Source: a candidate division WOR-3 bacterium
GTDB taxonomy: Bacteria > Hydrothermota > Tepidihabitantia > Tepidihabitantales > Tepidihabitantaceae
Length of the DNA: 64,000 nt
Assembly (NCBI GenBank): GCA_039801365.1
Contig: JBDRUN010000003.1
Coordinates: 2,146 to 66,145, forward strand
Reading direction: 5' to 3'
Below, in pieces: positions 3,259 through 29,572 of this stretch. How positions within the stretch are numbered: the first letter of the stretch is position 1; every line of letters starts with the position of its first letter. The notes below the pieces were generated by a model that saw only the letters and a list, made by a program, of their open reading frames with translations, was not told where the DNA came from and searched no databases. The translations under genes and the position numbers were made by a program.

Positions 3259-3798
3259 ATGCCGAGGCAAGAAAAGATAGGAGAAGTGGCCGAACTACGA
3301 GACAAGGTCAGCCGTGCTTCGGCGCTGTATTTTGTGGATTTTACTGCGGTTGGCGCAAACGACTTCAACACGGTGCGCCGGCGGCTGCGCGAAACTGGTG
3401 CAACAGTTAGGGTGGCGAAGAATCGGCTCGCGAAGCGGGCGCTAGAGGAAAACGGCGTAGCCCCGGAGGCGTTGAAGTTCCTGCGTGGGCCGACTTCGCT
3501 CGTGCTCGGCGCCGAGGACCCGATTGCGCCAGCTCGGACCCTGCGGGAGATAGTAAAAAAGATCGAAGCGTTGAAAGTGAAGGGCGCGTATGTTGACGGC
3601 GTGGTGTACTCGGCGGACAAGTTCGCATTTCTGGCCTCGCTGCCGACAAAGGCAGACCTACAGGGGCAACTTGTGGGCGTTTTGGCCGCGCCTATTCAAG
3701 CACTCGCGCTTGGACTTGAGCAGCTTGTGGCCGAGCTCGTATTCGTGATGGAAGAACTTGCGAAGCGGCCGTCCAACACCCCGGTTGAGGGCACATAG
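3259..3798 (+). CDS. rplJ: 50S ribosomal protein L10
   Basis: Start placed at the internal ATG (MPRQEKIGEVAELRDKV) preceded by GGAGGCG RBS; L10 family; the ORF-track 5' extension from 3181 overlaps rplA and is unlikely. Confidence 0.9.
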   Translation: MPRQEKIGEVAELRDKVSRASALYFVDFTAVGANDFNTVRRRLRETGATVRVAKNRLAKRALEENGVAPEALKFLRGPTSLVLGAEDPIAPARTLREIVKKIEALKVKGAYVDGVVYSADKFAFLASLPTKADLQGQLVGVLAAPIQALALGLEQLVAELVFVMEELAKRPSNTPVEGT

Positions 3799-4408: not shown

Positions 4409-7400
4409 GTGTCGGCCGACCATAACCAGCCGAAACGCGGTGGTCTAACAACCATGGAGGCAGCCAGGATGAAGCAGAAGGACTTCGCCAAGACGGGCAC
4501 CTTCCTGGAAATCCCCAACCTGCTCTCGCTTCAGCTCAACTCGTTTGCCGATTTCGTTCAGCACGGAGTAGAGCCGGCTCAGCGCAAGCGTCAGGGTCTC
4601 GAACTGGTGCTAAAAGAGACATTCCCGATTGAAGACGTGCATAAGAACTTCAGTCTTGAGTACGTCAGCTACAGCTTCGGCGAGCCGAAGTACTCGCCTG
4701 AGGAGGCAATCGCCAAGGGTGTCAATTACTCGATGCCGCTCAAGGTCGTGTTCCGGATGGTTCGCAAGGACCCTGCGCAAGAGACGGCAAAACCGATCGA
4801 GGTACTCGAGCAGGAGGTTTTCTTCTGCGAGCTGCCCTGGATGACCGTGAACGGGACCTTCATCATCAACGGGGTGGAGCGGGTGGTTGTGAACCAGCTC
4901 CACCGGGCACCGGGGGTTTACTATTCGCAGGAGGGCGGGGAATATTCAGGGCTCCTTGTGCCACTGCGCGGCGCCTGGTTTGAGGTAGTTGTTGACCGGC
5001 ATCGGACGATGGTGGTGCTACTCGACCGCAAACGCAGAATTTCGGCGGCGACGTTCATGCAGGCGATCGGGTTCACCCACGAGGACCTGATTGAACGGTT
5101 GTACAAGGTTGAGCGCCGTCGGCTGGCTCCAGGCCAGATGCTGGCTAAAGCCATCCGAGATGGCGAGGTAGTTCTTGCCCGGCCGGGCGAGTTCGTGACC
5201 CAAGGGCTCTTGGATTTTCTTGCAACCAAGGGAATCACCGAGGGCGACGTAGTTGACGCCGAGCTACCCGGCGTGGATATACTGGCCAATACCCTGCAGG
5301 CGGACAGAGCTGATTCCAAGGAAGATGCAATCAAGCAGATCTACTATCGGCTGCGCTCGATCGCCCCACATTCGCTTGAGGTAGCGGAGAACGTCATCGT
5401 CGGAATGCTGTTTGATCCTAAGCGGTTCGATCTTTCGGAAGTCGGACGGTACAAACTCAACCGCCGACTGATGCGCAAGGTGCCGCTGGAGGAAACCGGT
5501 CTGCTCAAGGACGATGTCGTGGCAATCATTGCACAACTTCTCGCTCTCGCTGGAGAGGCGCGGTTGCGACGGATTCGGTGTACGACCAGGAACGCTGCCG
5601 AGCGTTCGTCGGTTCTTGAGATGCTGAAGGAAGCCGGGGTGGAGCCGGGACAGGAGTTCTGGCACGAACGACTGACAGTGCTGGAGCTGACCTACCGCAT
5701 GGGCGAGGAAGGAGAGCGGGCTGAGGAGGTACTGCGCAAGGCCGGAGTGAAGTTCACTAGCGAGCTCGTGAGGCTCCAGCCGGACGATGTTGATCACCTG
5801 TCGAACCGGCGGGTCAAGCAGGTCGGTGAACTCTTGGAAAACCAGTTTCGGGCCGCGCTGATGCAATTGGCGCAGACCATTCGAGAACGGGTCGCGTTTG
5901 TCGACGAGAGCCAACTTAACCCGCAGGAGCTGGTCAATACCCGTGTGGTGGCCAATGCCGTGATGAAGTTCTTCACCCAGAGTCAGCTGTGTCAGTTTAT
6001 GGAGCAGACCAATCCGCTGGCCGAGCTTACCCACAAGCGGCGGGTTTCAACGCTCGGACCTGGCGGCCTGACGAGAGAGACGGCCGGCTTTGAAGTCCGG
6101 GACGTTCACTATTCGCACTATGGCCGTATCTGTCCGATTGAGACACCGGAGGGTCCCAACATCGGGTTGATTTCGACAATCTCGACCTATGCCAATGTAG
6201 ACCGTTATGGGTTCATCGACACGCCTTACTGGCCGGTACGGGAAGGCAAGGTCATGATTGGCGCCGGCAATGAGGTTTTCCTGAATCCGGAAGAAGAGGA
6301 ACGTTACACCATCGCTCAGGCCCATGCCGAACTGACTCCGGATAACCGGTTCGCCAAGGAAGAAGTCGTCTGCCGACGCCAGGGCGACGTCGTCGTTGTA
6401 CCGCCAGCCGAGGTTGACTTCATGGACGTGTCGCCGATGCAGATTTTTTCGCCTTCAACGATTCTTATTCCGTTCCTGGAACATGACGACGCCGACCGGG
6501 CACTGATGGGATCGAACATGGAACGTCAGGCGGTGCCGCTGCTGGAACCGCAGCGACCGCTGGTTGCGACCGGTGTCGAGGAGAAGTTCGCAACCGAGTC
6601 GGGTGCGGTGCTGCGCGCAAGTGAGGCCGGCGTAGTTACCAAGGTTGACGCGCGGACGATTGTCGTGAGGACCGAGACCGGTCTCGTGGAATATAAGCTG
6701 CTCAAGTACAAGAAGTCGAATCAGTACACCTGTTTGTCCCAGCGGCCGGTGGTGAAAGTCGGTGACGTCGTCAAGCAGGGCGACCTGTTGGCCGATGGTC
6801 CGGGAACCGAGGGTGGTCAGCTCGCGCTGGGCCGCAATGTACTCGTCGCGTTTGTGCCTTGGCGCGGGTACAACTACGAGGACGCAATCATCGTTTCGGA
6901 AAAGCTTCTGGCCGATGATGCGTTTACATCTATCCAGATACTGGAGTTTGAGATTCAGGCTCGTGAGACCAAACTCGGACCTGAGGAGATAACTCGTGAT
7001 ATTCCGGGTGCCACCGAAGACGACCTGCGCAACCTAGACGAATTCGGGGTGATAAGAGTCGGTGCCGAGGTCGGACCAGATGATATTTTGGTCGGCCGGA
7101 TTACGCCCAAAGGTGAGACTGAGTTCACACCCGAAGAAAGGCTGTTGCGGGCCATCTTTGGCGAGAAGGCCTCGAATGTCAAGGACACTTCGCTTCGGGT
7201 TGACCCGGGTGTATTCGGGGTTGTGGTCAACCGGCGGATTCTGTCGCGCAAGCTCGGGGACCCGATGTCGCGCCGACTGGAGAAGGAACGGGCTGGTGAT
7301 GCCGAACACAAGTTCGAGCTCCGAAAGCAGTTCCTTCTGGAGCGACGCAACGGCAAGCTGCGTTCGGTGCTGCGCGACCAGAAGGCAGCAGCGCCGGCCA

Positions 7401-8419
7401 AGGACGCCAAAGGTCGCATTGTGCACAAGGCCGGCCATCCGATTACCGATGAGTTTCTGGAGTCTGATGAGTTCAACCGGGTGCGGAACTTCGAGCAGTT
7501 GGTATCGAACCCAAAGAGACAGGCGGCAATCCGGGCAGCCATGAAGGAGTACGAGGACGGTCTCGCGGAGGCGGAGCGTGAAAAGCTCGCTGAACTGGAG
7601 CGTGTTACGCGTGGCGACGAGCTGCCTCACGGTGTCTTGAAATGGATAACGGTATTCATCGCCCAGAAACGCCGGCTGTCCTGCGGCGACAAGATGGCGG
7701 GCCGGCACGGTAACAAAGGCGTAGTGTCGAAGGTCCTGCCCGTCGAAGATATGCCCTACATAGCGGTCGGTGCTGAAGATGGGGTATCTGAGACTGTGCG
7801 CGGGATGAGGGGGTTGCCGGTTGACATCGTGCTGAACCCGCTGGGTGTGCCCTCAAGGATGAACCTCGGTCAGGTTCTCGAGACGCACTTGGGCTGGGCC
7901 GCAAGCGTACTCGGGTACCAAGCGGTCTGCCCGGTATTTCGCTCAGCCACACCGGAGGACATCAAGGAGGAGCTACGTCAGGCCGGGCTGCCGGATGACG
8001 GCAAGATTACGATGTATGACGGCCGGACCGGTGAACCCTTCAAGGAGAAGATAACAACCGGGATGATCTACATGATGAAACTGGTCCACATGGTGGACGA
8101 CAAGATCCATGCCCGGTCAACAGGCCGGTATTCGCTCATTACTCAGCAACCGCTCGGGGGCAAGGCTCAATTTGGCGGCCAGCGGTTCGGCGAAATGGAG
8201 GTCTGGGCGCTTGAGGCGTATGGTGCAGCTCATGCTCTGCAGGAAATGCTGACGATAAAGTCGGACGATGTTGAGGGTCGGAGCGTGCTTTACGAGGCAC
8301 TGATTCGGGGCAAGAATCCGCCTCGGCCAAAACCACCGGCATCTTTCTCGGTTCTTGTCAAGGAACTCCAGGGCTTAGGACTGGAGTTGGTTCCAGAACG
8401 CAAGGAGGAGACGGTATGA
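4409..8419 (+). CDS. rpoB: DNA-directed RNA polymerase subunit beta
   Basis: 1336-aa ORF with all conserved beta regions (rifampicin-cluster region QLSQFMDQTNPL-like = QLCQFMEQTNPLAELTHKRR, GDKMAGRHGNKGV, FGGQRFGEMEVWALEAYGAAH). True start may be one of the internal Met at 4454 or 4469. Confidence 0.95.
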   Translation: MSADHNQPKRGGLTTMEAARMKQKDFAKTGTFLEIPNLLSLQLNSFADFVQHGVEPAQRKRQGLELVLKETFPIEDVHKNFSLEYVSYSFGEPKYSPEEAIAKGVNYSMPLKVVFRMVRKDPAQETAKPIEVLEQEVFFCELPWMTVNGTFIINGVERVVVNQLHRAPGVYYSQEGGEYSGLLVPLRGAWFEVVVDRHRTMVVLLDRKRRISAATFMQAIGFTHEDLIERLYKVERRRLAPGQMLAKAIRDGEVVLARPGEFVTQGLLDFLATKGITEGDVVDAELPGVDILANTLQADRADSKEDAIKQIYYRLRSIAPHSLEVAENVIVGMLFDPKRFDLSEVGRYKLNRRLMRKVPLEETGLLKDDVVAIIAQLLALAGEARLRRIRCTTRNAAERSSVLEMLKEAGVEPGQEFWHERLTVLELTYRMGEEGERAEEVLRKAGVKFTSELVRLQPDDVDHLSNRRVKQVGELLENQFRAALMQLAQTIRERVAFVDESQLNPQELVNTRVVANAVMKFFTQSQLCQFMEQTNPLAELTHKRRVSTLGPGGLTRETAGFEVRDVHYSHYGRICPIETPEGPNIGLISTISTYANVDRYGFIDTPYWPVREGKVMIGAGNEVFLNPEEEERYTIAQAHAELTPDNRFAKEEVVCRRQGDVVVVPPAEVDFMDVSPMQIFSPSTILIPFLEHDDADRALMGSNMERQAVPLLEPQRPLVATGVEEKFATESGAVLRASEAGVVTKVDARTIVVRTETGLVEYKLLKYKKSNQYTCLSQRPVVKVGDVVKQGDLLADGPGTEGGQLALGRNVLVAFVPWRGYNYEDAIIVSEKLLADDAFTSIQILEFEIQARETKLGPEEITRDIPGATEDDLRNLDEFGVIRVGAEVGPDDILVGRITPKGETEFTPEERLLRAIFGEKASNVKDTSLRVDPGVFGVVVNRRILSRKLGDPMSRRLEKERAGDAEHKFELRKQFLLERRNGKLRSVLRDQKAAAPAKDAKGRIVHKAGHPITDEFLESDEFNRVRNFEQLVSNPKRQAAIRAAMKEYEDGLAEAEREKLAELERVTRGDELPHGVLKWITVFIAQKRRLSCGDKMAGRHGNKGVVSKVLPVEDMPYIAVGAEDGVSETVRGMRGLPVDIVLNPLGVPSRMNLGQVLETHLGWAASVLGYQAVCPVFRSATPEDIKEELRQAGLPDDGKITMYDGRTGEPFKEKITTGMIYMMKLVHMVDDKIHARSTGRYSLITQQPLGGKAQFGGQRFGEMEVWALEAYGAAHALQEMLTIKSDDVEGRSVLYEALIRGKNPPRPKPPASFSVLVKELQGLGLELVPERKEETV

Positions 8420-8504
8420 GGGGCGGACGACTACGGAGAACAGAAACAAGATGGCAGGCCGCTGCGTGGCAAGTTGGGGCGGGTGGACGAGGAGGGCGGA
8501 TACC

Positions 8505-11500
8505 ATGATTGCTGACAGGGATTTCCGAGACTTTGACGCACTGCGGCTGCGGATTGCATCGCCGGAAACAATCCGGAGCTGGTCCTCGGGCGAGGTGATA
8601 AAGCCCGAGACAATCAACTACCGCACCCAGAAGCCGGAACGGGACGGACTGTTCTGTGAGCGCGTGTTTGGTCCGGTGAAGGACTATGAGTGTAACTGTG
8701 GTAAGTACAAGAAGATTCGGTATAAGGGCATTGTGTGCGACCGTTGTGGCGTCGAGGTGACGACTTCGGCGGTGCGGCGTCATCGGATGGGGCACATCGA
8801 ACTGGTCGTGCCGGTTGCCCACACGTTGTTCTACCAGGTGCCACCTTCGAAGATTGGGCTCATGCTGGCGCTTTCCATCAACCAAGTCGAGGCAGTGCTG
8901 AATTACGAGGCATATGTGGTGATTGAGCCAGGCGACTCGCCGCTCAAGAAGATGGACCTTTTGGCTGAAGAGGACTATCGTGAGTACAGCCGTCGGTACG
9001 ATGGTTTTGAGGCAGGGACTGGTGCGGCCGCAATCAAGACACTATTGTCCAAGATCGAACTGGAAGACCTTGCCGCAGAACTACGTGCTCGGATTAAGCA
9101 CGAGACTTCCCGTCGGTTTGACCTACTACGGCGACTTCGGGTGGTTGAGGCGTTCCGGACTTCGGGTGCCCAGCCGGAGTGGATGGTGCTCGAGGTGCTG
9201 CCGGTGATTCCTCCTGACCTGCGGCCGCTAGTGCCGTTGGAGGGAGGGCGTTATGCTACCTCCGACCTGAACGATTTGTATAAACGGGTCATTGTCCGAA
9301 ATAACCGGCTCAAGCACCTGATGTCAATCAAGACTCCGGAGATTATTCTCAAGAATGAGAAGCGGATGCTGCAAGATGCCGTAGATACACTCTTCTCGAA
9401 CGAGACCCGGCCCAGGCCGGTGCGGGGCAGAGGAAACCGGCCGCTGAAATCGCTGTGCGAGGCACTGCGGGGCAAACAGGGCCGGTTTCGTCGTAATCTT
9501 CTGGGCAAGCGGGTTGACTACTCTGGCCGGTCGGTCATTGTGGTCGAGCCGACGCTGAAGCTTCACGAGTGCAGTCTGCCAAAGGAAATGGCCCTGGAGT
9601 TGTTCAAGCCGATGATTCTCAGACAATTGGAGGAACGTCGGCTGGCCGAATCTGAGCGAGGAGCAAAATCAATGTACCGGAAGGAGGCGCCCGAGGTATG
9701 GGAGGTGCTTGAGGAGGTGACGCGCGAGCACCCGGTACTGCTGAACCGCGCACCGACTCTGCACCGAATCTCGGTCGAAGGTTTCTTTCCTCGGTTGTCC
9801 GAGCAACGGGCGATCGGGATTCATCCGCTCGTGTGCCCGCCGTTCAACGCCGATTTTGACGGTGACACGATGTCGGTGCACGTACCGCTGACGCCAGAGG
9901 CGATCCTCGAAACAGCGGTACTCACCCTTTCTTCCCACAATATTCTTTCGCCTGCGCACGGCCGACCGCTGATGGTGCCGTCGCAGGACATTGTGGCCGG
10001 GGTGTACTTCATGACCAAAACCAGGCCTTCCCGCGGCGAGGCGAAGAAACACTTTGACGACTTCGCTACAGTGCACTCGGCCTATGAACTAGGTGAGCTT
10101 GATATCCACGAGCCGGTTAAGTTTCATTACGAAGGCAAGGTCTACGATACGACGGTGGGGCGGGTGCTTTTTAACGAGGTGTTGCCCAAGTCGCTGCGGT
10201 TTGTGAACGAGACCTATGGTAAGGATAAGCTCGTGGCGGCAGTTGACCTGTGTTCGCGAACTCTCGGCATGGACGCGACGGCGAAACTGTTGGACGACAT
10301 CAAGGACCTGGGATTTGAGATGGCAACGAGGTCCGGACTGTCAATCGGCATGGATGACGTGACCGTGCCGCCGGAGAAGGCTGAAGTACTCGAGCGTTCG
10401 GAGAAGGCGCTGCGCCGGGTTCAGCGGGCGTACGAGCGTGGGCTGATGACCGATGCCGAGAAGTACAACTTGGTAGTGAATACTTGGACACTGGCTACAG
10501 CCGAGGTCGAAGAAGCGCTGATGAAGCGGTTGAGCCAGGACCAGGAGGGATTCAACCCGGTTTTCATGCTGATTGACTCTGGCGCGCGAGGTTCCCGGAC
10601 TCAGGCTTCGCAGATCGGCGGGATGCGCGGCCTGATGGCTAAACCGCAGCGCCGGTCGGTCGGCGAGGAGGTTATTGAGACCCCGATCAAGAGTTCCTTC
10701 CGCGAAGGGTTGTCGGTCTGGGAGTATTTCATCTCGACCCACGGTGCGCGCAAAGGTCTTACCGATACCGCGCTCAAGACCGCGGAGGCCGGTTACCTAA
10801 CACGCCGCCTTGTGGACGTGGCGCAGGACGTTGTAATAACCCAGGAGGACTGTGGCACAATTCTTGGTCAGGAAGTTACCGCACTGCGAGAGGGCGGTGA
10901 GGTCGTCGAGCCTCTGGCGGAGCGCATCGCGGGCCGATTCGCGGTGGACGATGTCGTGAATCCGATCTCAGGCGAGGTTATCGTCCGGGCAGGAGATGAA
11001 ATTTCGGACAAAGCAGCTCAAGAGATCGAAGATTACGGTATCGAGAAAGTCAGGGTCAGGTCGGTTTTGACCTGCGAGACACCGGGCGGGTTGTGCGTGA
11101 AATGCTACGGCCGTAATCTCGCAACCGGCCGAATTGTGGAAATCGGCGAAGCGGTTGGCGTTGTCGCGGCGCAGTCAATTGGCGAACCGGGTACCCAGCT
11201 TACGCTCAAGACGTTCCACGTCGGCGGTGTCTCAGCCCGCGTGGCGGAGCAGACCAAGGCCACGGCCAAGTACTCGGGTCACGTGAAGTATGAAGGGTTG
11301 GTGGTCTCGGCCCGGTCCGATGGTGAGACGGTGGCGCTCGACCAAGGTCGGATAGTGGTGACTGCTCCGGACCGGGCGGTGCCATTCAATGTACCAGCAG
11401 GTGCGGTTGTCCGGGTCAAAGACGGGCAGGACGTGGCTGAAGGCGAGACGCTCTTTGAGTGGGAGCCGTACTCGATTCCGATCATGGCGAAGGCAGCGGG

Positions 11501-12521
11501 TAAGGTTGTGTACCACGACATTGAGGTTGGCATCACAGTGCGGGAAGACATTGACGAACGGACCGAGCGGATGCAGCGGATCATTACCGAAGACCGGCAG
11601 AAGCGGCGCCACCCGAGAATCACGGTTGTGAACGCGAAGGGCAAGACACTGGAAACCCATGCCCTGCCGGCCGGAGCTTACCTTGTGGCCGACGATGGCA
11701 CTGAGGTTGTGCCAGGTGACACGCTGGCACGGTTGCTGCGAGAGATGGGCCGGACTAGGGATATAACCGGCGGTCTGCCAAAGGTGGCCGAACTGTTTGA
11801 GGCCAAGCACGTGAAGGACCCGGCGGTTATCTCGGAGATTGACGGCACGGTTCATGTCGGCGAGCCTAAGGAGGGCATCCGGGAGGTGAGGGTCACTTCT
11901 GAGGGTGGAACCGACAAAGTTTACGAGATCCCGTACGGCAAGTATCTCTTGGTCCAGACTGGCGACCAGGTTCTCGCCGGCGACAAGCTGTGCGAGGGTT
12001 CGGTTGACCCACACGATGTTCTTAGAGTCAAGGGTTGGCTGGCCGTGCAGGAGTTCCTGACTAACCAGATTCAGGCGGTATACCGGCTGCAGAAGGTGAA
12101 AATCAACGACAAACACATCTCGGTGATTGTCCGACAGATGCTGCGTAAGGTGAAGGTCATTGACGCTGGCGATTCGAACTTCATCGAGGGTGAAATTGTT
12201 GAGCGGAGAAGACTATACGAGGAAAACCAGAAGCTTGTGGCCGAGAACCTGCGGCCGGCAAGTTTTCAGCCGATACTTCTCGGCATAACACGCGCGGCGC
12301 TCTTGACCGACAGCTTCCTTTCCGCAGCATCATTCCAGGAAACCACCCGGGTGCTGTCCGAGGCTGCAATCCAGGGTCGGCTGGACAAGCTCCGCGGGCT
12401 AAAGGAGAATGTCATCGTTGGCAGGCTGGTTCCGGCCGGCACCGGGTTCCGAGAGTTCTGCCGGATCAAGCTTGCTACTGAGGAGCCAAAAAAGGGTGAG
12501 CAGGAGGTAGCTTCAGAATGA
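8505..12521 (+). CDS. rpoC: DNA-directed RNA polymerase subunit beta prime
   Basis: Start set at ATG 8505 ([21 protein letters not shown]) with GGAGGGCGG RBS 9 nt upstream; zinc finger [23 protein letters not shown] catalytic motif, full-length beta-prime. Confidence 0.95.
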
Positions 12522-13497: not shown

Positions 13498-14360
13498 CAT
13501 TTTGCACGCCGCAGGACGATTACGGCAAGGTTGCGGCCAGCAGTGCCGTCACGGCGGACCGAGTAGAAGTGCTCCGGGTTCTCTTTGGTGCAGAGGTCGA
13601 GCGAGCCGGCCTCGACGAGGCCCAACCCCGTGAGCAGGCTGCGGTTGGCGGAGCGGAGGTCGAGGTGGAAGCGAAAATGGTTCCAGGGTCCCAGGGTTCT
13701 AGGGTTCAAGGGGTCGAACCGTTGGCTTTCCGATACCTCCTGTTGTTCCGCTGGACGGAGGAAACGGTCGGCCGAGGGGAACTGTTGGCGAAACTCGGCG
13801 GCGACATCCTCACCTACAACGTAGCAGTCAGCGCAGATGCAGGGGCCGAGGGCGAAGTGCAGACGCGGTAGCGGAACCGAGAATCGTTCGGACATCTGTT
13901 GTGCGAGTTTCTCGGCAAGTCTGGTGGCGGTGCCCCGCCATCCGCAGTGGGCAAGGCCGACTACAGGTGGTTTGCATGACCAGATATACACCGGCAGGCA
14001 GTCCGCAACCTTGATGCCGAGTCCGATGCCGGGTAAATCGCTGAAGGCTGCGTCAGCCTCCTGTTGCTTTTCCTGCTTGTCCGGTTCGGCGAAGAATACC
14101 ACCCGTGCAGAGTGAATCTGGTTCATTGTGAAGAGTGTAGTGATGCCAAGGGCGTGCCTGACCCGACGCAGATTTTCTCTGACCGCGTGCTCTTCATCGC
14201 CAACCTGCAGGGACAGGTTCAGAGAATCGTAAGGGCCGCGCGAGACACCGCCCTTGCGGGTAGTGAAGGCTATCACAAAGCCAGGAGCGGGTTGAGACTC
14301 GTAGTATTCTATTCCATTCGCCAGGTGGATTCGCCAGTTCGCCGGAACGCAACCAGGCAT
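13494..14360 (-). CDS. pgeF: YfiH/PgeF-family protein (DUF152, laccase-domain / peptidoglycan editing factor) carrying an in-frame octamer-repeat insertion
   Basis: FTTRKGGVS..SLNLS, HAVRENL, VADCLPV, GLAHCGWRG, and C-terminal RRDG.AGRNL motifs typical of COG1496; 288 aa versus about 250 typical. Confidence 0.7.
   Translation of the reverse strand: MPGCVPANWRIHLANGIEYYESQPAPGFVIAFTTRKGGVSRGPYDSLNLSLQVGDEEHAVRENLRRVRHALGITTLFTMNQIHSARVVFFAEPDKQEKQQEADAAFSDLPGIGLGIKVADCLPVYIWSCKPPVVGLAHCGWRGTATRLAEKLAQQMSERFSVPLPRLHFALGPCICADCYVVGEDVAAEFRQQFPSADRFLRPAEQQEVSESQRFDPLNPRTLGPWNHFRFHLDLRSANRSLLTGLGLVEAGSLDLCTKENPEHFYSVRRDGTAGRNLAVIVLRRAKW
13681..13720. repeat. Octamer tandem array (TTCNAGGG, 5 copies) in-frame inside pgeF, encoding DPLNPRTLGPWNHF
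   Basis: Direct reading: ttccaggg tcccaggg ttctaggg ttcaaggg gtcgaacc. Confidence 0.8.
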
Positions 14361-16220: not shown

Positions 16221-18347
16221 CTATAACTGTTGTCTTGGTGCCAGGTGGGCTTCGACCTTTTCGAGCGAGGACCGGGCCGCGTCGTGATTCGGGTCAATAC
16301 GAATAGCCTGGGACAATGCGGCTCGAGCCGGTTCAAGGCTATCCATCGAGACGTACACCAGGCCGAGCAGGTAATAGTTTTCGGCGTTCAGCGGGTCGAG
16401 CTCGACCGCAGCCTTGTAGTGCCGGATGGCAAGTGCAAAATCGCGGCGAGCGATAGCGAGGCGGCCGCCGGCCAGCTCGGCCAGCACGCGGTTGCGCGGG
16501 TCGGTGCCGACTACCTTGGCCAACTCCCGGTACTCGGCTTCTGCCTCCTTGGTTCGGCCCAGTCCGGCATAGGCGACAAACAGTCCGTACCGGGCCACCG
16601 GGTTGGCCGGATTCGCGTCAATGGCCCGGCGGAATGCGTCGAATGCTCGGCTGCTTCCCATCGTCATGTAAGTATTTCCGGCCTGGGTCCAGGCTTGAGC
16701 AGTGTACGTTCGGCGGTCAACCGGGATGAGACCGGACCCGGCGTACAAGATGATGGCGGCGGCAGAGATAACAGCCGACCTCATCCATTTCCCTTGCCTT
16801 ATGGCTGAAACCGTCTCGGCCACGGCATACCCGGCGAACATCAGGAAGAACGGAATCACCGGCGCGCGCAGGCGGGAAAGAACGTAGAAAACGAGAGAAG
16901 ATACGAGGAAGGCGAGAATGAAGAATAGGGGATAGAGGGCCAGAGGGACAGAAGGATGAGGTCCGGCACTTGAACCCTGGAACCCCTGAACTCTGGAACC
17001 GTTCCTGCTTAGTGCTAGGAAGACACCGACCAAGCCCAAGGCTGCAATCAGGCCGAAATTCAGAAACGCAACTTTGAGCGCAACCGAGTAGGGCCAGGCA
17101 GTTTCCGGGTAGTAGTTGCTAGGAACTTCGTAATTGGACCAGAACAGGAGAAACTTGCGGGAAAGCAGCCACAGGCTCCGACCCGGGGTACGGACGACGA
17201 ATTCCAGACCTTTCCTTGTCCAGTATGCGGAGGCTTGAGACCAGGAAAGCTCCCTGCCGTCTATCATCCGGCTGATGCGCTTGAGCTGCTGATGCGAGAA
17301 GCCGGCAGTACGCTCCAGCTCGGTCTGCTGCCAGGTGCCGTCGGTCCATGGATTCCAGCCGTAGTAGAAGTTGATGCCCGAATGCGCGGTGAACAGCACC
17401 GGTTCGCGGGCAACGATGAGATTCCGAATCGGCACCACGGCGATTGTGGCCAGCGCGCAGGCGGTCATGGTGATGATAGCTCGCAGTCGTGTCGGAGCCC
17501 CCCTTCCTTTCGTTCCCTCCCCCTTGAAGGGGGAGGAAGAGGGTGAAGGTGGGCTTGCGTTCGAGCGTACTTCGAGCTGCGGTGCGGTGCGTTGTGCGGT
17601 CTGCACCCTGCGGCCTGCGCCCAGTGTGCGCCACAGGACGATGACGAACGCCGGAAGCAGGATTAGCATCTCCGGCCGGCAGATGACCAGAAGGCCAAAC
17701 GATATCCCGGCAATAGCCCAGCGCCATGACCCCCTCCCTTTCATTCCCTCCCCCTTCAAGGGGGAGGGAGAGGGTGAAGGTGGTTTCTGTCCTTTTCCTT
17801 CCTTCCCTTCTTTCTTGAAGGGAGAGGCAAGGGGTGAGGGTGAGGTTACACTCCACAGCACAAGCCACAGGGTCAGGAGTGAGAAGAACACCGTGACCTC
17901 GACATAGAGCAGAGCGCCGGTGTAGAACACGATAATGCCGGTCAGGGCGAACCCGAACGCAGCGAACAGGGCACTGGTGCGGCCAAAGATACGCCGGGTC
18001 GAGTCGTAGAGCAGGAAGCAGGAGACTGCAGCGAGGAAGCACTGGAACAACTGCACCGGGAACACCTTTGGGCCGAATATGGCATACAGCCCGGCGAGCA
18101 TGTAGGGATATAGCGGCCGCAGGAAGAAGACTTCGTTGCCCCATAAGCTCTTGTGCACGATGTCCAGGGCCCAGGTGTGGTAGTACCAGGAGTCAATCAC
18201 CTGGGCTGAGATGACCGAAAATGGATGGCCACGCATCTCCAGAATGAACCACAGCCGGATGGCGAACGTCAACACAACCGCCAGCGCGGGTAGTATCGTT
18301 GTGGTCAATGGTCGGCGGTCAGCGGTCGGCGGTCGGCGTTGCGCCAT
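16221..18347 (-). CDS. GT-C fold membrane glycosyltransferase (ArnT/PMT-like) with C-terminal TPR repeats; contains in-frame repeat insertions
   Basis: About 10 N-terminal TM helices in a pattern like dolichyl-phosphate-mannose / 4-amino-arabinose transferases; C-terminal TPR motifs (AWTQAGNTYMTMGSSRAFDAFRRAIDANP, AEAEYRELAKVV, YKAAVELDPLNAENYYLLGLVY). Confidence 0.7.
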   Translation of the reverse strand: MAQRRPPTADRRPLTTTILPALAVVLTFAIRLWFILEMRGHPFSVISAQVIDSWYYHTWALDIVHKSLWGNEVFFLRPLYPYMLAGLYAIFGPKVFPVQLFQCFLAAVSCFLLYDSTRRIFGRTSALFAAFGFALTGIIVFYTGALLYVEVTVFFSLLTLWLVLWSVTSPSPLASPFKKEGKEGKGQKPPSPSPSPLKGEGMKGRGSWRWAIAGISFGLLVICRPEMLILLPAFVIVLWRTLGAGRRVQTAQRTAPQLEVRSNASPPSPSSSPFKGEGTKGRGAPTRLRAIITMTACALATIAVVPIRNLIVAREPVLFTAHSGINFYYGWNPWTDGTWQQTELERTAGFSHQQLKRISRMIDGRELSWSQASAYWTRKGLEFVVRTPGRSLWLLSRKFLLFWSNYEVPSNYYPETAWPYSVALKVAFLNFGLIAALGLVGVFLALSRNGSRVQGFQGSSAGPHPSVPLALYPLFFILAFLVSSLVFYVLSRLRAPVIPFFLMFAGYAVAETVSAIRQGKWMRSAVISAAAIILYAGSGLIPVDRRTYTAQAWTQAGNTYMTMGSSRAFDAFRRAIDANPANPVARYGLFVAYAGLGRTKEAEAEYRELAKVVGTDPRNRVLAELAGGRLAIARRDFALAIRHYKAAVELDPLNAENYYLLGLVYVSMDSLEPARAALSQAIRIDPNHDAARSSLEKVEAHLAPRQQL
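16972..17006. repeat. Octamer tandem array (GGGTTCNA family, reverse orientation) in-frame inside the GT-C/TPR gene, encoding NGSRVQGFQGSS
   Basis: tgaaccc tggaaccc ctgaactc tggaaccg read directly. Confidence 0.75.
17497..17552. repeat. Imperfect palindromic element about 54 nt, copy 1 (CCCCTTCCTTTCGTTCCCTCCCCCTT-GAAGGGGGAGGAAGAGGGTGAAGGTGG), in-frame in the GT-C/TPR gene
   Basis: Arms are near reverse complements; length is a multiple of 3; encodes a Ser/Pro/Gly/Lys-rich loop (SPPSPSSSPFKGEGTKGRG). Confidence 0.75.
17730..17782. repeat. Imperfect palindromic element about 54 nt, copy 2
   Basis: CCCCCTCCCTTTCATTCCCTCCCCCTTCAAGGGGGAGGGAGAGGGTGAAGGTGG; 85-90% identical to copy 1. Confidence 0.75.
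17788..17846. repeat. Imperfect palindromic element, degenerate copy 3, immediately adjacent to copy 2
   Basis: CCTTTTCCTTCCTTCCCTTCTTTCTTGAAGGGAGAGGCAAGGGGTGAGGGTGAGG; same architecture. Confidence 0.6.
18310..18338. repeat. Heptamer tandem array (GGTCGGC/GGTCAGC, 4 copies) at the 5' end of the GT-C/TPR gene
   Basis: ggtcggc ggtcagc ggtcggc ggtcggc read directly; encodes RRPPTADRRPLTT at the protein N-terminus. Confidence 0.7.
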
Positions 18348-18886
18348 CAGTTGGCACTATCTTAGTTTGGTCGAGGACAGGGTCAAGGACAGGGTGGCAG
18401 TCTGGCCGCTGGGCCACTTGGCCACTCTTGTTTGTCGTGCCTTGACTGAAGTCCGGTTTCGGCCTATTCTGGATGCGGTGGAAAGGTAACCTGAAAGACC
18501 CCGTGACCGGGAAGAAAATGGCAGGCATGAACAACGTCCCCGGGAATACGAGACGAGGCGGTCTTGGCAGAAAACGGAAGTAGGTTAGTGTAACCGATAT
18601 GACAGTCTCGGACCTGCGGCGCCAAGGGTGTGTTGGGGGATAGTATTCTTACGCAGGTTTGCCCCTGTTCCCGGGCAGATTGAGGCAGGACTGGACGCAG
18701 AGCTGGCTGTTTGCACATGAGTTGGTCTGGTGTTTGCGGGCAACCCGCAGTATGCTGGCTTAGCGCTTCAGACGTGCAAAGACGTGGTCTGTATGTGTCT
18801 GCCCGAATAACGAGACACGCTGTTGGGCCTAGGAGCGCGGTTCGCCGGCAGCGAAAGCGAAACAAACCACTAACTAAGGAGGTCAG

Positions 18887-21914: not shown

Positions 21915-22438
21915 AGTGGAGGCGGGTCTATAAGCCGGGTTCTGTACCCGGACTTCGTCCGAATCCTCCGAAAGGAATAAGGAATACCTCATTCCTGATT
22001 TCGGAGCCCGGCAGAAGCCGGGCGACGGTCATTTATCTGTGCCTGCGGTTGCCCGCAGGCCTCAAGCGACCTACCCGGGACTCGAGCGGACCGGGCCAGT
22101 CCTTGTCCCGATTTGGTCTTGCACCAGGCAGGGTTTGCCCATTCCAGATGTCGCCACCCGGAATAGTGCGCTCTTACCGCACTTTTTCACCCTTACTCTG
22201 CGAGACCCTTCGCTTACGCTCAGGGCAGACCGCAGAGCGGTCTGGTTTCTGTGGCACTTTCCGTCCACGGGCCGTTTCTGACCCGCAGCCTTGCCGTTAG
22301 CAAGTGCCTTGCCCTTTGGTGCCCGGACTTTCCTCTACAGGAGAGAGTTCAAGGGGTCCAGGGTTCAAGGGTTCCAGTGAGGAACACCGAACCGGACTTC
22401 CAAGACCCGGTCCTGCAGCGACCGTCCGACCCGCCTCC
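21915..22438 (-). ncRNA. rnpB: RNase P RNA (bacterial type A) with an octamer-repeat insertion in P3 and an extra 3'-proximal hairpin
   Basis: On the minus strand: P1 GGAGGCGGGTC...GACCCGCCTCC; universal P4 GAGGAAAGTCCGGGC and ACAGAACCCGGCTTAT; ACAGAAAC; AAGGGTGAAAAAGTGCGGTAAGAGCGCAC (P10-P12); GCAAGACCAAATCGGGACAAGG; all in canonical order. About 520 nt because of insertions. Overlapping ORF-track ORFs 21576-22512 are spurious. Confidence 0.8.
22345..22378. repeat. Octamer tandem array (GGGTTCNA family) inside the RNase P RNA gene, in the P3 region
   Basis: gagttcaa ggggtcca gggttcaa gggttcca read directly; lies between P1/P2 and the GGAAAGTCCGGGC P4 strand. Confidence 0.75.
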
Positions 22439-26607: not shown

Positions 26608-27738
26608 GTGAATAGCAGGATAGTCCTCGCCATCGGCGGTAATTCCCTTATACGGGCCAAGGACAAGCAGTCTTTTTCGGACCAGCTTGCTGCAGTTGGT
26701 GACACCTGCCACCAGGTTGCCGACTTGGTCGAGGCCGGGCATGAGGTCGTCATTACCCACGGCAACGGGCCACAGGTCGGCTTCCTTCTCATTCGGTCGC
26801 ACTTGTCACGGAACCGGCTGCCGGAGACTCCACTCGATGCCGCGAATGCTCAGACCCAGGCGGAAATCGGGTACATGATTCAGCAGGCGCTCGGCAACGA
26901 GCTGAGCCGGCGGGGACTGTATCAAACCCAGAAAGCCAAGAGCCAAGGGTCAGGAGTAGAAGCTCAAAGTCCAGCCAGAGTGAATGGCGTTGTGACAGTT
27001 GTGACACAGGTGGTGGTTGACCCGAATGACCCGGCGTTTCAGAATCCGTCCAAGCCGGTCGGGCCGTTCTATACCAAGGCTGAGGCCGCGGCTCTGCAGA
27101 GAGAACTGGGCTGGACAATGCGTGAGGACGCAGGTCGCGGGTTTCGGAGATTCGTGCCGTCGCCCCGGCCAGTGGAGATTGTAGAGCTGCCGGAGATTAG
27201 GCGGTTGCTGGAGTCAGGGTTCGTGGTAATCGCCTGCGGTGGAGGAGGGATTCCGGTTGTGAGTGAGCGGACAACTCAGAGCTCAGTAGTCAGGAGTCAG
27301 AACGCAGAGTGCGGAAAACCGGAGTCGGAAGGCTGGCGGCAGGTGATGGATAGTAGGCTGTTGCGGGGAGTAGCAGCGGTGATTGATAAGGATTTGGCAT
27401 CGAGCCTACTCGCGCGGGAACTCGGCGCTGACATATTCGTGATTTCCACCGCGGTGGAGCAGGTGTATCTGGATTACGGTAAGCCAAACCAGCGGCCGCT
27501 CGGTAGCGTCAAAGCAAAAGAGATGCGGGAATACCTCTTGGCCGGTCAGTTTCCAGATGGTAGCATGGGGCCGAAGGTTGAGGCGGCCCTTTCCTTTCTG
27601 GGGCTAGATGAATTCAGGACGCAGGAAGCAGAACGCAGAATGCAGGAGCTGGGAGCGGAGCGGCAGGTTATTATCACCGACCCGGAACATATAGTGGCCG
27701 CACTGCGGGGAGAAGCGGGAACGAGAATTACAGCATGA
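26608..27738 (+). CDS. arcC: Carbamate kinase with three in-frame low-complexity insertions
   Basis: IVLAIGGNSL...HGNGPQVG...VVIACGGGGIPVV...IDKDLASSLLARELGADIFVISTAVEQVYLDYGKPNQRPLG...GSMGPKVEAA are carbamate kinase signatures; 376 aa versus about 310 typical. Confidence 0.8.
   Translation: MNSRIVLAIGGNSLIRAKDKQSFSDQLAAVGDTCHQVADLVEAGHEVVITHGNGPQVGFLLIRSHLSRNRLPETPLDAANAQTQAEIGYMIQQALGNELSRRGLYQTQKAKSQGSGVEAQSPARVNGVVTVVTQVVVDPNDPAFQNPSKPVGPFYTKAEAAALQRELGWTMREDAGRGFRRFVPSPRPVEIVELPEIRRLLESGFVVIACGGGGIPVVSERTTQSSVVRSQNAECGKPESEGWRQVMDSRLLRGVAAVIDKDLASSLLARELGADIFVISTAVEQVYLDYGKPNQRPLGSVKAKEMREYLLAGQFPDGSMGPKVEAALSFLGLDEFRTQEAERRMQELGAERQVIITDPEHIVAALRGEAGTRITA
26931..26985. repeat. arcC insertion 1 (GCAGAGT-family repeat DNA; encodes KAKSQGSGVEAQSPARV)
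   Basis: CAGGAGTAGAAGCTCAAAGTCCAG related to CAGGAGTCAGAACGCAGAGTGC (insert 2) and CAGGAAGCAGAACGCAGAATGC (insert 3). Confidence 0.6.
27270..27330. repeat. arcC insertion 2 (encodes TTQSSVVRSQNAECGKPESEG)
   Basis: Same motif family; falls between conserved carbamate kinase blocks. Confidence 0.6.
27606..27665. repeat. arcC insertion 3 (encodes EFRTQEAERRMQELGAER)
   Basis: Same motif family. Confidence 0.6.
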
Positions 27739-29090
27739 AGGGTTCAAGGGTTCGAGGGTTCAAGGGGCCGAGTGAGCAGACCGGACGATGCCAGATACCA
27801 GATAACAGATTGCAGATTGCAGAGTCCAGACCACGGAACTCAGGATTGTGCGTCCTGGCGTTCTTGGTGGTTGTTTCATCAATCTTCGCTCAGCCGGCGA
27901 TGGTGCTTATTCCGATGGACCTGACGCAGGCCGACCATCTGAAGGCGTACGGCATCGTGTATCGGCTGTTGCAGCGGGGGCAGAGAGCGGAGTGGCTTCT
28001 GAACTATCGGGGCGGTTCGTTCCTCTTGCCGGTTGAGGCTCAGGCAATGAAAGAGTGTCGGCTTGAAGGGGTGGTCTATCAGTCGGTGTCCGCGGCCGAC
28101 CTGGTACAGATCAGGCAGACTATTGATCAGAACAACATGGAGTCAGTTATGCTGGAGCGGCCAACGAGGCTGGCGGTGTACGTTCCACCCACCGCTGACC
28201 CGTGGGACGATGCGGTTCGGCTGGCCCTGGACTATGCCGGCATTCCGTACGACAAGGTCTGGGATGAGGAGGTGCTGGCCGGTAAGCTTTCCCAGTACGA
28301 CTGGCTGCATCTGCATCACGAGGATTTCACCGGCCAGTACGGCAAGTTCTATGCTTCGTACCATAACGCAGACTGGTACCAGGCCGAAGTGGCGCTGAAT
28401 ACGAAAATGGCGCGTAAGCTCGGATTCTCCAAAGTCAGCAAACTGAAGCTTGCGATTGTCGGGATGGTGCGGCAGTATGTCGCGGATGGCGGGATGCTGT
28501 TTGCAATGTGTTCGGCCACAGACACGCCGGATATTGCCTGGGCGGCACAGAATACGGATATCTGTAATCAGGTTTTCGATGGCGACGGCGTTGATCCGGC
28601 GTATCGCTCAAAGCTCGACTACAGTGGTTGTCTGGCATTCGAGAACTTTGAGCTAGTTACCGACCCAATGGTGTATGAGCACTCAGACATTGACACCTAT
28701 CTTGAGGCGACTGCCCGCGGGCCGGATACATACTTCGCACTGTTTGACTTCTCGGCCAAGTTTGACCCGGTGCCGACGATGCTGGTTCAGAACCACGTAG
28801 GGCTGGTCAAGGAGTTTCTCGGCCAGAACTGCGGGTTTCGCCGGGAGCGGCTGAAAAAGAGCACGCTCATTATGGGTGAGGTCAAGAATACCGAGGAGGT
28901 GAAGTACATTCACGGTAACTTCGGCAAGGGGACTTGGACTTTTCTCGGTGGCCACGACCCTGAGGACTACGCCCACCGCATCGGCGACCCAGTGACCGAC
29001 CTTTCCTTGCACAAGAACTCGCCTGGGTACAGGCTGATACTGAATAACGTGCTGTTTCCCGCGGCGGAGAAGAAAAAGCTGAAGACGTGA
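27735..29090 (+). CDS. Hypothetical secreted protein (possible ThuA/DUF4159-like amidotransferase-like fold); 5' end built from tandem repeats
   Basis: Long ORF with a conserved-looking core (LAVYVPPTADPWDDAVRLALDYAGIPYD, MLFAMCSATD); its first about 35 codons are the GGGTTCNA and CAGATTG arrays, so the true start is probably near 27846 (hydrophobic signal LCVLAFLVVVSSIFA). Confidence 0.45.
   Translation: MKGSRVRGFKGPSEQTGRCQIPDNRLQIAESRPRNSGLCVLAFLVVVSSIFAQPAMVLIPMDLTQADHLKAYGIVYRLLQRGQRAEWLLNYRGGSFLLPVEAQAMKECRLEGVVYQSVSAADLVQIRQTIDQNNMESVMLERPTRLAVYVPPTADPWDDAVRLALDYAGIPYDKVWDEEVLAGKLSQYDWLHLHHEDFTGQYGKFYASYHNADWYQAEVALNTKMARKLGFSKVSKLKLAIVGMVRQYVADGGMLFAMCSATDTPDIAWAAQNTDICNQVFDGDGVDPAYRSKLDYSGCLAFENFELVTDPMVYEHSDIDTYLEATARGPDTYFALFDFSAKFDPVPTMLVQNHVGLVKEFLGQNCGFRRERLKKSTLIMGEVKNTEEVKYIHGNFGKGTWTFLGGHDPEDYAHRIGDPVTDLSLHKNSPGYRLILNNVLFPAAEKKKLKT
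27739..27767. repeat. Octamer tandem array (GGGTTCAA GGGTTCGA GGGTTCAA) spanning the arcC stop
   Basis: Direct reading. Confidence 0.8.
27791..27832. repeat. Heptamer tandem array (CCAGATA CCAGATAA CAGATTG CAGATTG CAGAGTC CAGACC)
   Basis: Direct reading. Confidence 0.8.
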
Positions 29091-29096
29091 GAGCAA

Positions 29097-29136
29097 AGGG
29101 TTCAAGGCTTCCAGCGTTCCAGGGTTCGAGGGTGAG
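29097..29136. repeat. Octamer array (GGGTTCAA GGCTTCCA GCGTTCCA GGGTTCGA GGGTGAGG), left flank of four-helix-bundle gene 1
   Basis: Direct reading. Confidence 0.8.
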
Positions 29137-29163: not shown

Positions 29164-29541
29164 ATGCTGAGGAACTACAAGGAGTTGACTGCATGGCAGC
29201 GGGCGTACGGGCTTTGTCTGGAGGTTTATCGCCTTACTGCCGAGTTTCCAAAGGAGGAGAAGTATGGGCTTGTATCTCAGATTCGGCGGGCCGCCGTGTC
29301 GGTTCCATCCAACATTGCCGAGGGATACGGCAGAAGAACCACGGGTGAGTATCTCCAGTCTCTGCATGTTGCGTACGCTTCTCTGTGCGAGCTCGAGACG
29401 CAAGTTCTCCTTGTTTCGGACCTGGGGTTCCTGAAATTGGAGCCGTCGCGGAAACTGAAGGAAGACGTTGGTGATGTCGAGCGGTTGCTCAAGGCGCTCA
29501 TCAGGTCATTGGAGCAGAAGCGTTCTGCTCCTGAACACTAG
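29164..29541 (+). CDS. Four-helix-bundle protein (TIGR02436 / 23S rRNA intervening-sequence protein family, PF05635; same family as DGR Avd)
   Basis: YKELTAWQRAYGLCLEVYRLTAEFPKEEKYGLVSQIRRAAVSVPSNIAEGYGR...SLCELETQVLL is the characteristic family sequence. Confidence 0.8.
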   Translation: MLRNYKELTAWQRAYGLCLEVYRLTAEFPKEEKYGLVSQIRRAAVSVPSNIAEGYGRRTTGEYLQSLHVAYASLCELETQVLLVSDLGFLKLEPSRKLKEDVGDVERLLKALIRSLEQKRSAPEH

Positions 29542-29572
29542 AACCCTTGAACCCTAGAATCCTGGAACCCTG
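29541..29572. repeat. Octamer array in inverted orientation (GAACCCTT GAACCCTA GAATCCTG GAACCCTG), right flank of four-helix-bundle gene 1
   Basis: Reverse complement of the GGGTTCNA family; starts in the gene's stop codon. Confidence 0.8.

Follow-up and report, generated by a model that had tools for sequence, protein, structure and literature searches.

A REP-like palindrome, probably a tolerated passenger, in three in-frame copies within a membrane glycosyltransferase gene of a WOR-3 bacterium

Why does a gene for a membrane glycosyltransferase carry three copies of one palindrome inside its coding sequence? The gene lies in a 64-kb stretch of DNA (the window) from a candidate division WOR-3 bacterium, and an earlier note, made from the letters alone, had described the three palindromes. 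A repeat search and alignment to a family consensus bear the description out, and the features are as follows.

16221..18347, minus strand: host gene, encoding a 708-aa membrane glycosyltransferase (open reading frame list and translation)
17499..17551, minus strand: copy 1 of the 53-nt palindromic element, 49/53 against the family consensus; amino acids 266-283, PPSPSSSPFKGEGTKGRG
17730..17782, minus strand: copy 2, the best preserved, 51/53 against the consensus; amino acids 189-206, PPSPSPSPLKGEGMKGRG
17790..17842, minus strand: copy 3, decayed, 41/48 against the consensus plus a 5-nt indel; amino acids 169-186, SPSPLASPFKKEGKEGKG

The three copies share orientation and codon phase, every block beginning at codon position 2, and all encode PPSPSPSPLKGEGMKGRG-like peptides, in two loops of the protein. 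The repeat-family search delimited them as 17499-17552, 17730-17783 (93%), and 17790-17843 (70%, relative to copy 1). A common core had been claimed for all three. The core CCCTCCCCCTTSAAGGGGGAGGG was indeed found twice at up to three mismatches, against 0.00 expected from 100 shuffles, but copy 3 has only a degenerate form, TCCCTTCTTTCTTGAAGGGA, and many G-to-A changes have accumulated in its G-arm. Copies 2 and 3 are in tandem, as had been noticed, with 60 nt from start to start. The statement that each copy is a multiple of 3 was mistaken: the intervals originally given are 56, 53, and 59 nt, and the conserved block of 53 to 54 nt is not divisible by 3 either. Instead, flanking bases preserve the frame, and the reading frame is unbroken across all three copies. 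The core hairpin of copy 1 lies at 17514-17538, copy 2 contains a perfect 12+12 palindrome at 17745-17769, and a residual hairpin of copy 3 lies at 17804-17823. Strong hairpins had been expected in the mRNA, and they are predicted at -21 to -33 kcal/mol (-29.6, -33.0, and -21.4 for copies 1 to 3), with z-scores against shuffles of only -1.6 to -2.0 because the composition of C-run plus G-run folds well regardless.

The host protein is a polytopic GT-C protein, as had been predicted. Pfam places a PMT_2 (GT-C-type) domain at the N terminus (37.7 bits; gathering cutoff, 26.1) and TPR repeats, with matches to TPR families, at the C terminus. The AF2 model (pLDDT, 86.9; pTM, 0.88) has a multi-helix core, and Foldseek matched it to the oligosaccharyltransferases AglB, PglB, and STT3, although the TMq of 0.29 to 0.35 is moderate only. 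No PDB relative was found at the sequence level. In the first extracytoplasmic loop, the acidic residue D52 is conserved without exception in 114 homologues, and the protein thus combines the Pfam score, polytopic helical core, and invariant acidic residue of a PMT_2/GT-C enzyme. It is 100% identical to an NCBI entry named 'MAG: tetratricopeptide repeat protein [candidate division WOR-3 bacterium]' (P0001), and its gene has conserved synteny with RecJ and Cu-oxidase_4 neighbors.

Where the inserts fall may explain why the protein bears them. Copies 2 and 3 occupy loop 1, between helices H148-168 and H205-223, and copy 1 occupies loop 2, between helices H225-253 and H285-313. Residues 169-204 and 254-284 are modeled as coil with pLDDT of 48 to 60 (about 50 for 254-284), and the fold is retained. 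A screen of relatives for the empty site, which the earlier note had proposed, found loop 1 empty, with 11 aa, in 103 of 114 homologues versus 48 aa here; loop 2 has 16 to 17 aa in 37 homologues versus 59 aa here. The loop 2 site also bears the element in two distant orthologues (P0006 and P0007), and in other orthologues the corresponding loop holds a second palindromic element (L134) or heptamer tandem repeats (L135). Three features could account for survival of the insertions: they sit between transmembrane helices, in two loops that are short and vary in length; their summed length keeps the frame; and they are read without stop codons, giving a peptide (Ser/Pro-Lys/Gly) that is flexible and net positive and would suit a loop in the cytoplasm, the side of the membrane that both insert-bearing loops appear to face. 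Together, these features argue that the protein probably still works with its inserts and that the inserts are tolerated passengers, presumably neutral ones.

The element is not confined to this gene. Its 53-nt family consensus reads CACCCTCACCCTCT-CCCTCCCCC-TTSAA-GGGGGAGGG-AATGAAA-GGGAGGGGG, and this 53-mer, sharply bounded and flanked by unrelated sequence, was found at about seven other distinct loci, mostly outside long open reading frames (L121, the same as L128; L124; L125, the same as L126; L127; L129, the same as L130; L131; L132; and L133, the same as L070). Copy 2 differs from the L121 copy at 1 of 53 positions, as counted by hand from the printed sequences. L129 is a WOR-3 contig, as its GroEL is approximately 90% identical to GroEL proteins that NCBI names as WOR-3. 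These loci support a palindromic repeat family at the level of DNA rather than a protein motif.

The core of the element is more widespread still. A 21-nt core, identical across phyla, occurs at at least 120 sites in one-genome-per-species contigs of many phyla, versus approximately 0.5 to 3 by chance (our own arithmetic). The outer arms are also common to this wider family, and its type-A relatives form hairpin doublets and tandem arrays. Among the core matches listed, about three quarters are intergenic, and 23% have a stop-free frame of at least 60 codons on both sides versus 68% of random positions. Some copies elsewhere are in frame, in PepN, in two PolA interdomain linkers, in an aminotransferase, and in a DEAD helicase, with Pfam domains on both sides of or flanking the insert. 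Genes beside the intergenic copies are co-directional, convergent, or divergent in the same proportions as the background, and therefore a role of the family as terminator or promoter was rejected. A CRISPR-like array was also rejected, as the copies lack spacers and are single or in short tandems.

We favor, with a probability of roughly 0.6, the explanation that the copies belong to a short, nonautonomous, REP-like palindromic family dispersed at low density in WOR-3 genomes, that those in the gene are tolerated passengers, and that the C5/G5 hairpin core recurs in repeats that are far more abundant, lie mostly between genes, and occur in many bacterial phyla. The element would have entered the glycosyltransferase gene at least twice. 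Copy 3 may be the older, decayed insertion and copy 2 a younger one, adjoining it and present in this lineage only, while copy 1 would represent entry into the second loop, the one that is element bearing in the two distant orthologues as well.

In 11 aligned copies, the element begins with CACCC after a pyrimidine and ends with GGGGG before a T, and terminal inverted repeats are present, the outer arms CACCCTCACCC and GGGAGGGGG(TG) being conserved in all copies. The same 11 copies have no GTAG or CGTC tag and no consistent direct repeat as a target-site duplication, only L129 having a possible GCAT/GCAT pair. An IS200/IS605-type target was rejected, as no conserved tetranucleotide precedes the element in the 11 copies. 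No transposase was found by Pfam among the 50 open reading frames of the window, and a crude scan of all fetched loci for a HUH...YxxNP motif found no RAYT, a scan that would miss a RAYT gene present once elsewhere in the genome. The lack, in these searches, of a transposase, a target-site duplication, and a conserved flanking target counts against the explanation we favor. We infer that the element is mobile. Its copying may involve a single-stranded hairpin intermediate and an enzyme supplied in trans, or else template switching or gene conversion. The comparison to REP and MITE elements in the earlier note thus holds in part: the 53-mer at unrelated loci and the core in many phyla are REP-like, but the MITE-like half fails on target-site duplication.

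Intragenic REPs are documented, for example, in DNA polymerase I, whose linkers or loops presumably accommodate them, and a GTAG (or CGTC) tetranucleotide tag marks one REP end (Di Nocera, De Gregorio & Rocco 2013, PMC3733652). Like REPs, the members of the family are imperfect palindromes, short and GC-rich, that lie for the most part between genes, either singly, as inverted doublets, or in arrays, and a minority are in frame in genes such as that for DNA polymerase I. As in REPs, target-site duplications are absent, and the consensus is conserved beyond neutral expectation. Unlike REPs, the element lacks the terminal tag and is 53 nt long with a 23- to 25-nt core, compared to the usual 20 to 40 nt of a REP; moreover, it is low copy in the WOR-3 DNA sampled, with none elsewhere in the window and no RAYT in the window or the fetched loci. 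REPs also form REPIN-RAYT systems (Bertels & Rainey 2011, PMC3116915), which the RAREFAN preprint (10.1101/2022.05.22.493013) describes as mostly inherited vertically within individual bacterial lineages, whereas the core of this element spans many phyla.

Another parallel for the inserts within genes is the Rickettsia palindromic elements, or RPEs (Ogata et al. 2000, as reviewed in PMC10969869). Both are palindromic repeats found in frame in unrelated housekeeping genes, with noncoding copies besides, and both lengthen the protein by a conserved peptide segment and do not destroy it. RPEs, however, are about 100 to 150 bp, AT-rich, and confined to Rickettsia, whereas the element is 53 nt, consists of C and G runs, and is found in WOR-3; there is no sequence similarity between the two, and the relatives of the core lie in many phyla. 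By analogy, the element works like an RPE and is not a member of the RPE family. Prokaryotic MITEs are reviewed in the same place (PMC10969869). The element resembles them in being small and noncoding, with terminal inverted repeats (CACCC...GGGTG), a stable hairpin transcript, and an occasional in-frame fusion to an open reading frame, but it has no flanking direct repeats, is GC-rich rather than AT-rich, and is much shorter. We know of no parent insertion sequence for it. Palindromic amphipathic repeat coding elements, or PARCELs, are a further class (Roske et al. 2010, PMC2996958). They too are palindromic DNA repeats within coding sequence that are spread among distant taxa. PARCELs are longer, form tandem intragenic arrays, and encode amphipathic helices. 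In contrast, the peptide of the element is predicted to be coil, and most members of its family are noncoding.

By analogy to the RPEs and the published intragenic REPs, we regard the element as a dispersed, REP-like palindrome that permissive loops tolerate. The event is of a known kind, and the lineage, WOR-3, is new: REP-like palindromes colonize coding sequence in this uncultured phylum, and do so in a polytopic membrane enzyme. The gene also shows, as a clean natural case, which loops of a GT-C-type transferase can take 20 to 40 extra residues. Full-text literature searches with the core DNA and the peptides returned nothing relevant, and the searchable literature gave no description of the wider family, whose core is identical in many phyla and which has neither a GTAG/CGTC tag nor a known mobilizing enzyme.

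Conservation of the element at orthologous sites is a reason to consider that it is instead a structure maintained in place by purifying selection, such as a hairpin in RNA or DNA, a module forming a G-quadruplex, or a site bound by a protein or the ribosome. In three orthologous ABC ATPase-permease operons (L131, L132, and L133), the coding DNA is 66 to 72% identical and the intergenic 55-nt element is 95 to 96% identical, and the L131 copy ends 6 nt upstream of the permease ATG. Among glycosyltransferase orthologues, the element is 0.85 to 0.93 identical while the host proteins are 56 to 66% identical outside it, and third-codon identity is 0.78 to 0.94 inside the element versus 0.49 to 0.58 outside. 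The right junction, xPxRLR, is common to the window copy and L123, which suggests an old shared insertion. Moreover, GGAGG occurs in the G-arm and CCTCC in the C-arm, the 21-nt core is the same across phyla, and the right arm, as we read it, fits the canonical G4 motif G5-A-G3-N7-G3-A-G5. As judged from the alignments, conservation at orthologous sites is far above that of neutral DNA, and a purely passive passenger leaves it unexplained. Strong conservation of this kind offers a way to ask whether a repeat persists by selection or by turnover.

Selection on a structure is, all the same, unlikely, as is the related idea that the element, within this gene, tunes how fast the mRNA is translated or how stable it is between transmembrane segments. 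At the corresponding site, L122, the closest orthologue (73% amino acid identity), has no recognizable element, and nucleotide identity there is 41%, near random. Copy 3 is decaying, and most homologues manage without an insert. Intergenic copies have no bias of orientation or position with respect to the adjacent genes. The element alignments have almost no covariation, although for the outer stem the test is uninformative because there is too little variation. A permissive search of Rfam gave no family, only miRNA-type hairpin noise far under the gathering scores. Finally, a REP consensus kept by turnover, or by coevolution with its cognate enzyme, would look alike.

A broader version of selection is quite unlikely. 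Here, the C5/G5 hairpin with its G-rich tail would be one ancient or horizontally spreading family held near invariant by a universal partner, perhaps the anti-Shine-Dalgarno tail of the ribosome, a hairpin/G-quadruplex switch, or a broad-host single-strand transposase, and would serve as a selected regulatory RNA or DNA module at orthologous sites, this gene included.

Alternatively, an ancestral low-complexity loop was duplicated locally, by slippage, unequal recombination, or gene conversion, for the sake of a useful Ser/Pro-Lys/Gly peptide, and the palindrome is incidental. Every copy in the window lies in the one gene, and even a loose hairpin scan of the window gave no further copy. Nor is there one in the 15 kb and 22 kb surrounding two orthologues. 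The clustering of three copies in a single 2.1-kb gene therefore departs far from random dispersal and counts against the explanation we favor. Moreover, copies 2 and 3 are adjacent, all copies use one frame, copies 1 and 2 have a variant of their own (CACCTTCACCC, versus CACCCTCACCC in every other copy), and the same loops lengthen in orthologues by simple tandem repeats. Local duplication is very unlikely, however, as the 53-nt sequence recurs, with identical ends, at unrelated, mostly noncoding loci of other genomes, copy 2 is nearer to that external consensus (51/53) than it is to copy 1, and the peptide regions are predicted to be disordered. That repeats, which misassemble easily, were put into the gene by faulty assembly or binning of this metagenome-assembled genome is hardly credible, as the frame is intact across three copies, the independent assemblies GCA_016294905.1 and ENA ERZ27266623 bear the element in the same loop of the orthologous gene, and the RecJ and Cu-oxidase_4 synteny is conserved.

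Elements of the REP-like family that we favor also affect annotation, as they inflate protein lengths and create spurious 'PSPxxGEG' open reading frames. A peptide search of a representative library gave five matches, and the four retrieved look like spurious open reading frames over related repeat arrays, for example, PLPNPSPARGEGL.

Three copies of one element lie within a single membrane glycosyltransferase gene. The earlier note had described three such copies, and a repeat finder recovered them as one family of 54-nt repeats at 17499-17552, 17730-17783 (93% identical) and 17790-17843 (70%), with a perfect 12+12 palindrome at 17745-17769. The blocks were aligned to a consensus built from copies gathered later:

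17499-17551, minus strand: copy 1, 49/53 identical to consensus
17730-17782, minus strand: copy 2, 51/53 identical to consensus
17790-17842, minus strand: copy 3, 41/48 identical to consensus; carries a 5-nt indel and numerous G-to-A changes

All three blocks start at codon position 2. They had been described as multiples of 3, which is wrong because the conserved block is 53-54 nt; adjoining bases keep the frame. The frame in use reads PSPSPSPLKGEGMKGRG, while the second contains a TGA stop and the third encodes acidic TLTLSLPLEGGGNEREG. In the window, a 23-nt core occurs twice with ≤3 mismatches (0.00 expected from shuffles), and neither BLAST-short nor a loose scan for C-arm/G-arm hairpins found a further copy in the 64 kb. 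In each well-preserved copy, a strong GGAGG is also followed two bases later by an in-frame ATG (element consensus GGGGGAGGGAATGAAAGG); at Met202 (window 17745-17738 region), copy 2 thus has a potential internal start codon, and copy 1 has ACG there.

The host gene, 16221..18347(-), encodes 708 aa with a PMT_2 domain above the Pfam cut-off and C-terminal TPR repeats. An NCBI protein from a candidate division WOR-3 MAG is identical to this product. Its neighborhood is one of housekeeping genes (EF-Tu, NusG, L7/L12, two large ORFs, S12, S7, Cu-oxidase_4 and RecJ, then, beyond the glycosyltransferase gene, UvrB, PolA and polysaccharide genes), and no transposase was found there among the window ORFs by Pfam. 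The ORFs at 4409-8419 and 8451-12521 are putatively rpoB and rpoC, judged by size and by synteny with the RNA-polymerase genes of L122, the contig of the closest relative. An AlphaFold2 model built from 114 homologues was confident (pLDDT 86.9, pTM 0.88), and Foldseek matched it to TPR proteins and its membrane part to the oligosaccharyltransferases AglB, PglB and STT3 (TMq 0.29-0.35). Two stretches were modeled as coil with pLDDT 48-60: residues 169-204, which contain copies 3 and 2 and lie between helices 148-168 and 205-223 (loop 1), and residues 254-284, which contain copy 1 and lie between helices 225-253 and 285-313 (loop 2). Assuming that the N terminus is inside, that the invariant D52 loop and the TPR domain are outside, and that helix 79-91 is juxtamembrane, both loops would be cytoplasmic, a placement that fits both the Arg/Lys-rich short loops of orthologues (VAGNRLW; LWRRKTSLRNL) and inserted peptides that are net positive in charge.

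Most relatives have empty sites. The earlier note had proposed screening for them, and loop 1 is indeed 11 aa in 103/114 homologues versus 48 aa in the window protein; for loop 2, 37 homologues have 16-17 aa versus 59 aa. The element is present in loop 2 of homologues P0006 (contig L121) and P0007 (L123), 66% and 56% identical in amino acids outside it, and was not recognizable in loop 2 of the closest relative, P0002 (73%). The right junction, G-xPxR-LR, is common to the window and L123, and this favors an old shared insertion. Loop 1 of P0002 and P0003 contains 13 additional aa, which might conceivably be a remnant of copy 3.

The element also occurs far beyond this gene. A subtype-specific 31-mer, scanned against metagenomes, matched 10 loci, seven of them distinct, including contig L129, assigned to WOR-3 because its GroEL is ~90% identical to NCBI-named WOR-3 GroEL proteins. 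Most of these copies lie outside long ORFs. Aligned copies form a sharp 53-nt block, CACCCTCACCCTCTCCCTCCCCCTTSAAGGGGGAGGGAATGAAAGGGAGGGGG, with unrelated flanks and neither a target-site duplication nor a conserved target. The 21-nt core, CCTCCCCCTTNAAGGGGGAGG, was found in at least 120 stretches when one genome per species was scanned, versus ~0.5-3 expected by chance from our own arithmetic, and the matches listed include Rhodocyclales, Geobacter, Nitrospira, Actinomycetota, Gemmataceae, Dehalococcoidales, Stahlbacteria, Omnitrophota and others. Two architectures surround it: the symmetric form of the window, CACCCCCACCC-n-core-n-GGGTGGGGGTG, and a commoner one-sided form, ACCCCATCCCCCTCC-yrA-core, which frequently comes with a second hairpin or in arrays, recalling REP doublets. 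The frame was open for ≥60 codons on both sides in 23% of core matches listed versus 68% of random positions, and neighbor-gene orientations at intergenic matches were a background mix. Clear in-frame copies occur in real, Pfam-supported genes: PepN, two PolA interdomain linkers, an aminotransferase and a DEAD helicase.

Doublets or arrays of the core hairpin were seen in Proteobacteria and Geobacter (loci L004, L026, L035, L065, L074, L088, L103, L109, L117; L007, L032, L082, L111). There, a second, slightly different hairpin, its C-rich tail opposite, often precedes the core hairpin, and the two form a REPIN-like inverted doublet; alternatively, the core hairpin forms head-to-tail repeats with a period of 31-36 nt. 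Among IMG/VR contigs L136-L139, the 21-nt core is on three viral/proviral contigs, twice on two.

We favor, with a probability of roughly 60%, a REP-like dispersed palindrome that would be copied through a hairpin intermediate by a putative activity and that persisted here because permissive cytoplasmic loops were its landing sites. Such behavior resembles that of the Rickettsia palindromic elements (RPEs), known in-frame palindromic repeats (review PMC10969869), and of intragenic REPs, which occur in genes such as PolA, UvrA and RecB and whose suggested sites there are flexible linkers (PMC3733652). The element is not an RPE, as size, sequence and host taxon differ, and, lacking a tag, it lies outside the GTAG and CGTC REP superfamilies. 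Of the proposed REP/MITE likeness, the REP half is favored and the MITE half fails for want of a target-site duplication. No published description of the sequence or its peptide was found in the literature searched; in-frame palindromic repeats are already known, and the present element adds another case.

Selection on an RNA or DNA structure is an unlikely alternative. Conservation at orthologous sites is unexpectedly high: third-codon identity in the glycosyltransferase gene is 0.78-0.94 inside the element versus 0.49-0.58 outside, and in three orthologous ABC ATPase-permease operons of diverged genomes, coding DNA is 66-72% identical versus 95-96% for the intergenic element, which lies between the ATPase and permease genes at these positions:

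L131 3851-3903
L133 1554-1584
L132 160-190

Besides selected structure, candidate readings are site-specific reinsertion, such that insertions are younger than they look, and homogenization of the copies by a master sequence under constraint, as has been proposed for REPINs. The strong mRNA hairpins that had been anticipated were indeed predicted (-29.6, -33.0 and -21.4 kcal/mol for copies 1 to 3), but z was just -1.6 to -2.0, as same-composition shuffles also fold well. In L131, 6 nt separate the end of the G-rich arm from the permease ATG, and this arm could be, or mask, the ribosome-binding site; in L133, an ATG within the element starts the longest permease ORF.

A purely local duplication or a protein-level motif is more doubtful. 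Copies 1 and 2 share a private variant, CACCTTCACCC, where all nine other copies have CACCCTCACCC, and so derive from one source in this lineage. Copy 2 resembles the external consensus more closely than it does copy 1, and by our count it differs from the L121 copy at 1/53 positions. An artifact is very improbable.

In this protein family, the loops have also taken up tandem repeats of 7-8 nt, which are frequent in the window, and a second palindromic element. Positions refer to the window unless a contig is named:

13679-13712, 16972-17000, 22347-22377, 27738-27772, 29097-29133, 29532-29571: dispersed GGGTTCMA octamer tandem arrays
18310-18338, 18369-18395, 18404-18426: short tandem repeats at the glycosyltransferase 5' end
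L134 (contig of orthologue P0087) 3632-3659: second palindrome, CCCTCTCCCTTCAAGGGCGAGGGAGAGG, with a C-rich left tail, in frame in loop 2

The GGGTTCMA arrays have 3.5-5 units each (a 22-mer matches 14 times at ≤3 mismatches versus 0 expected) and recall cyanobacterial short tandemly repeated repetitive (STRR) sequences. One lies inside the Cu-oxidase_4 coding sequence, and another forms a third low-confidence loop of the glycosyltransferase (aa ~449-470, SRVQGFQGSS). Four heptamers, GGTCGGC, encode its N-terminal RRPPTADRRP, and 12-mer GGTCAAGGACAG and 8-mer GGCCACTG repeats lie just upstream of its start codon. The second palindrome, translated as TLTPTLSLQGRGRG, is also in orthologues P0012, P0013, P0018, P0035, P0045, P0060 and P0085; thus, loop 2 has been struck independently by different palindromes. 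Loop 2 falls into length classes of 16-17, 24, 31-32 and 38 aa (alignment A3). In orthologue P0053 (contig L135), its extra residues, SLVPRPSSLVPRPS, are five tandem heptamers, GTCCCTM, and the 7-8-aa steps therefore look like three 7-8-nt units per addition. Finally, two paralogous "23S rRNA-intervening sequence protein" genes (PF05635; 29164-29541 and 36940-37314), 7 kb apart, each adjoin heptamer or octamer tandem repeats.
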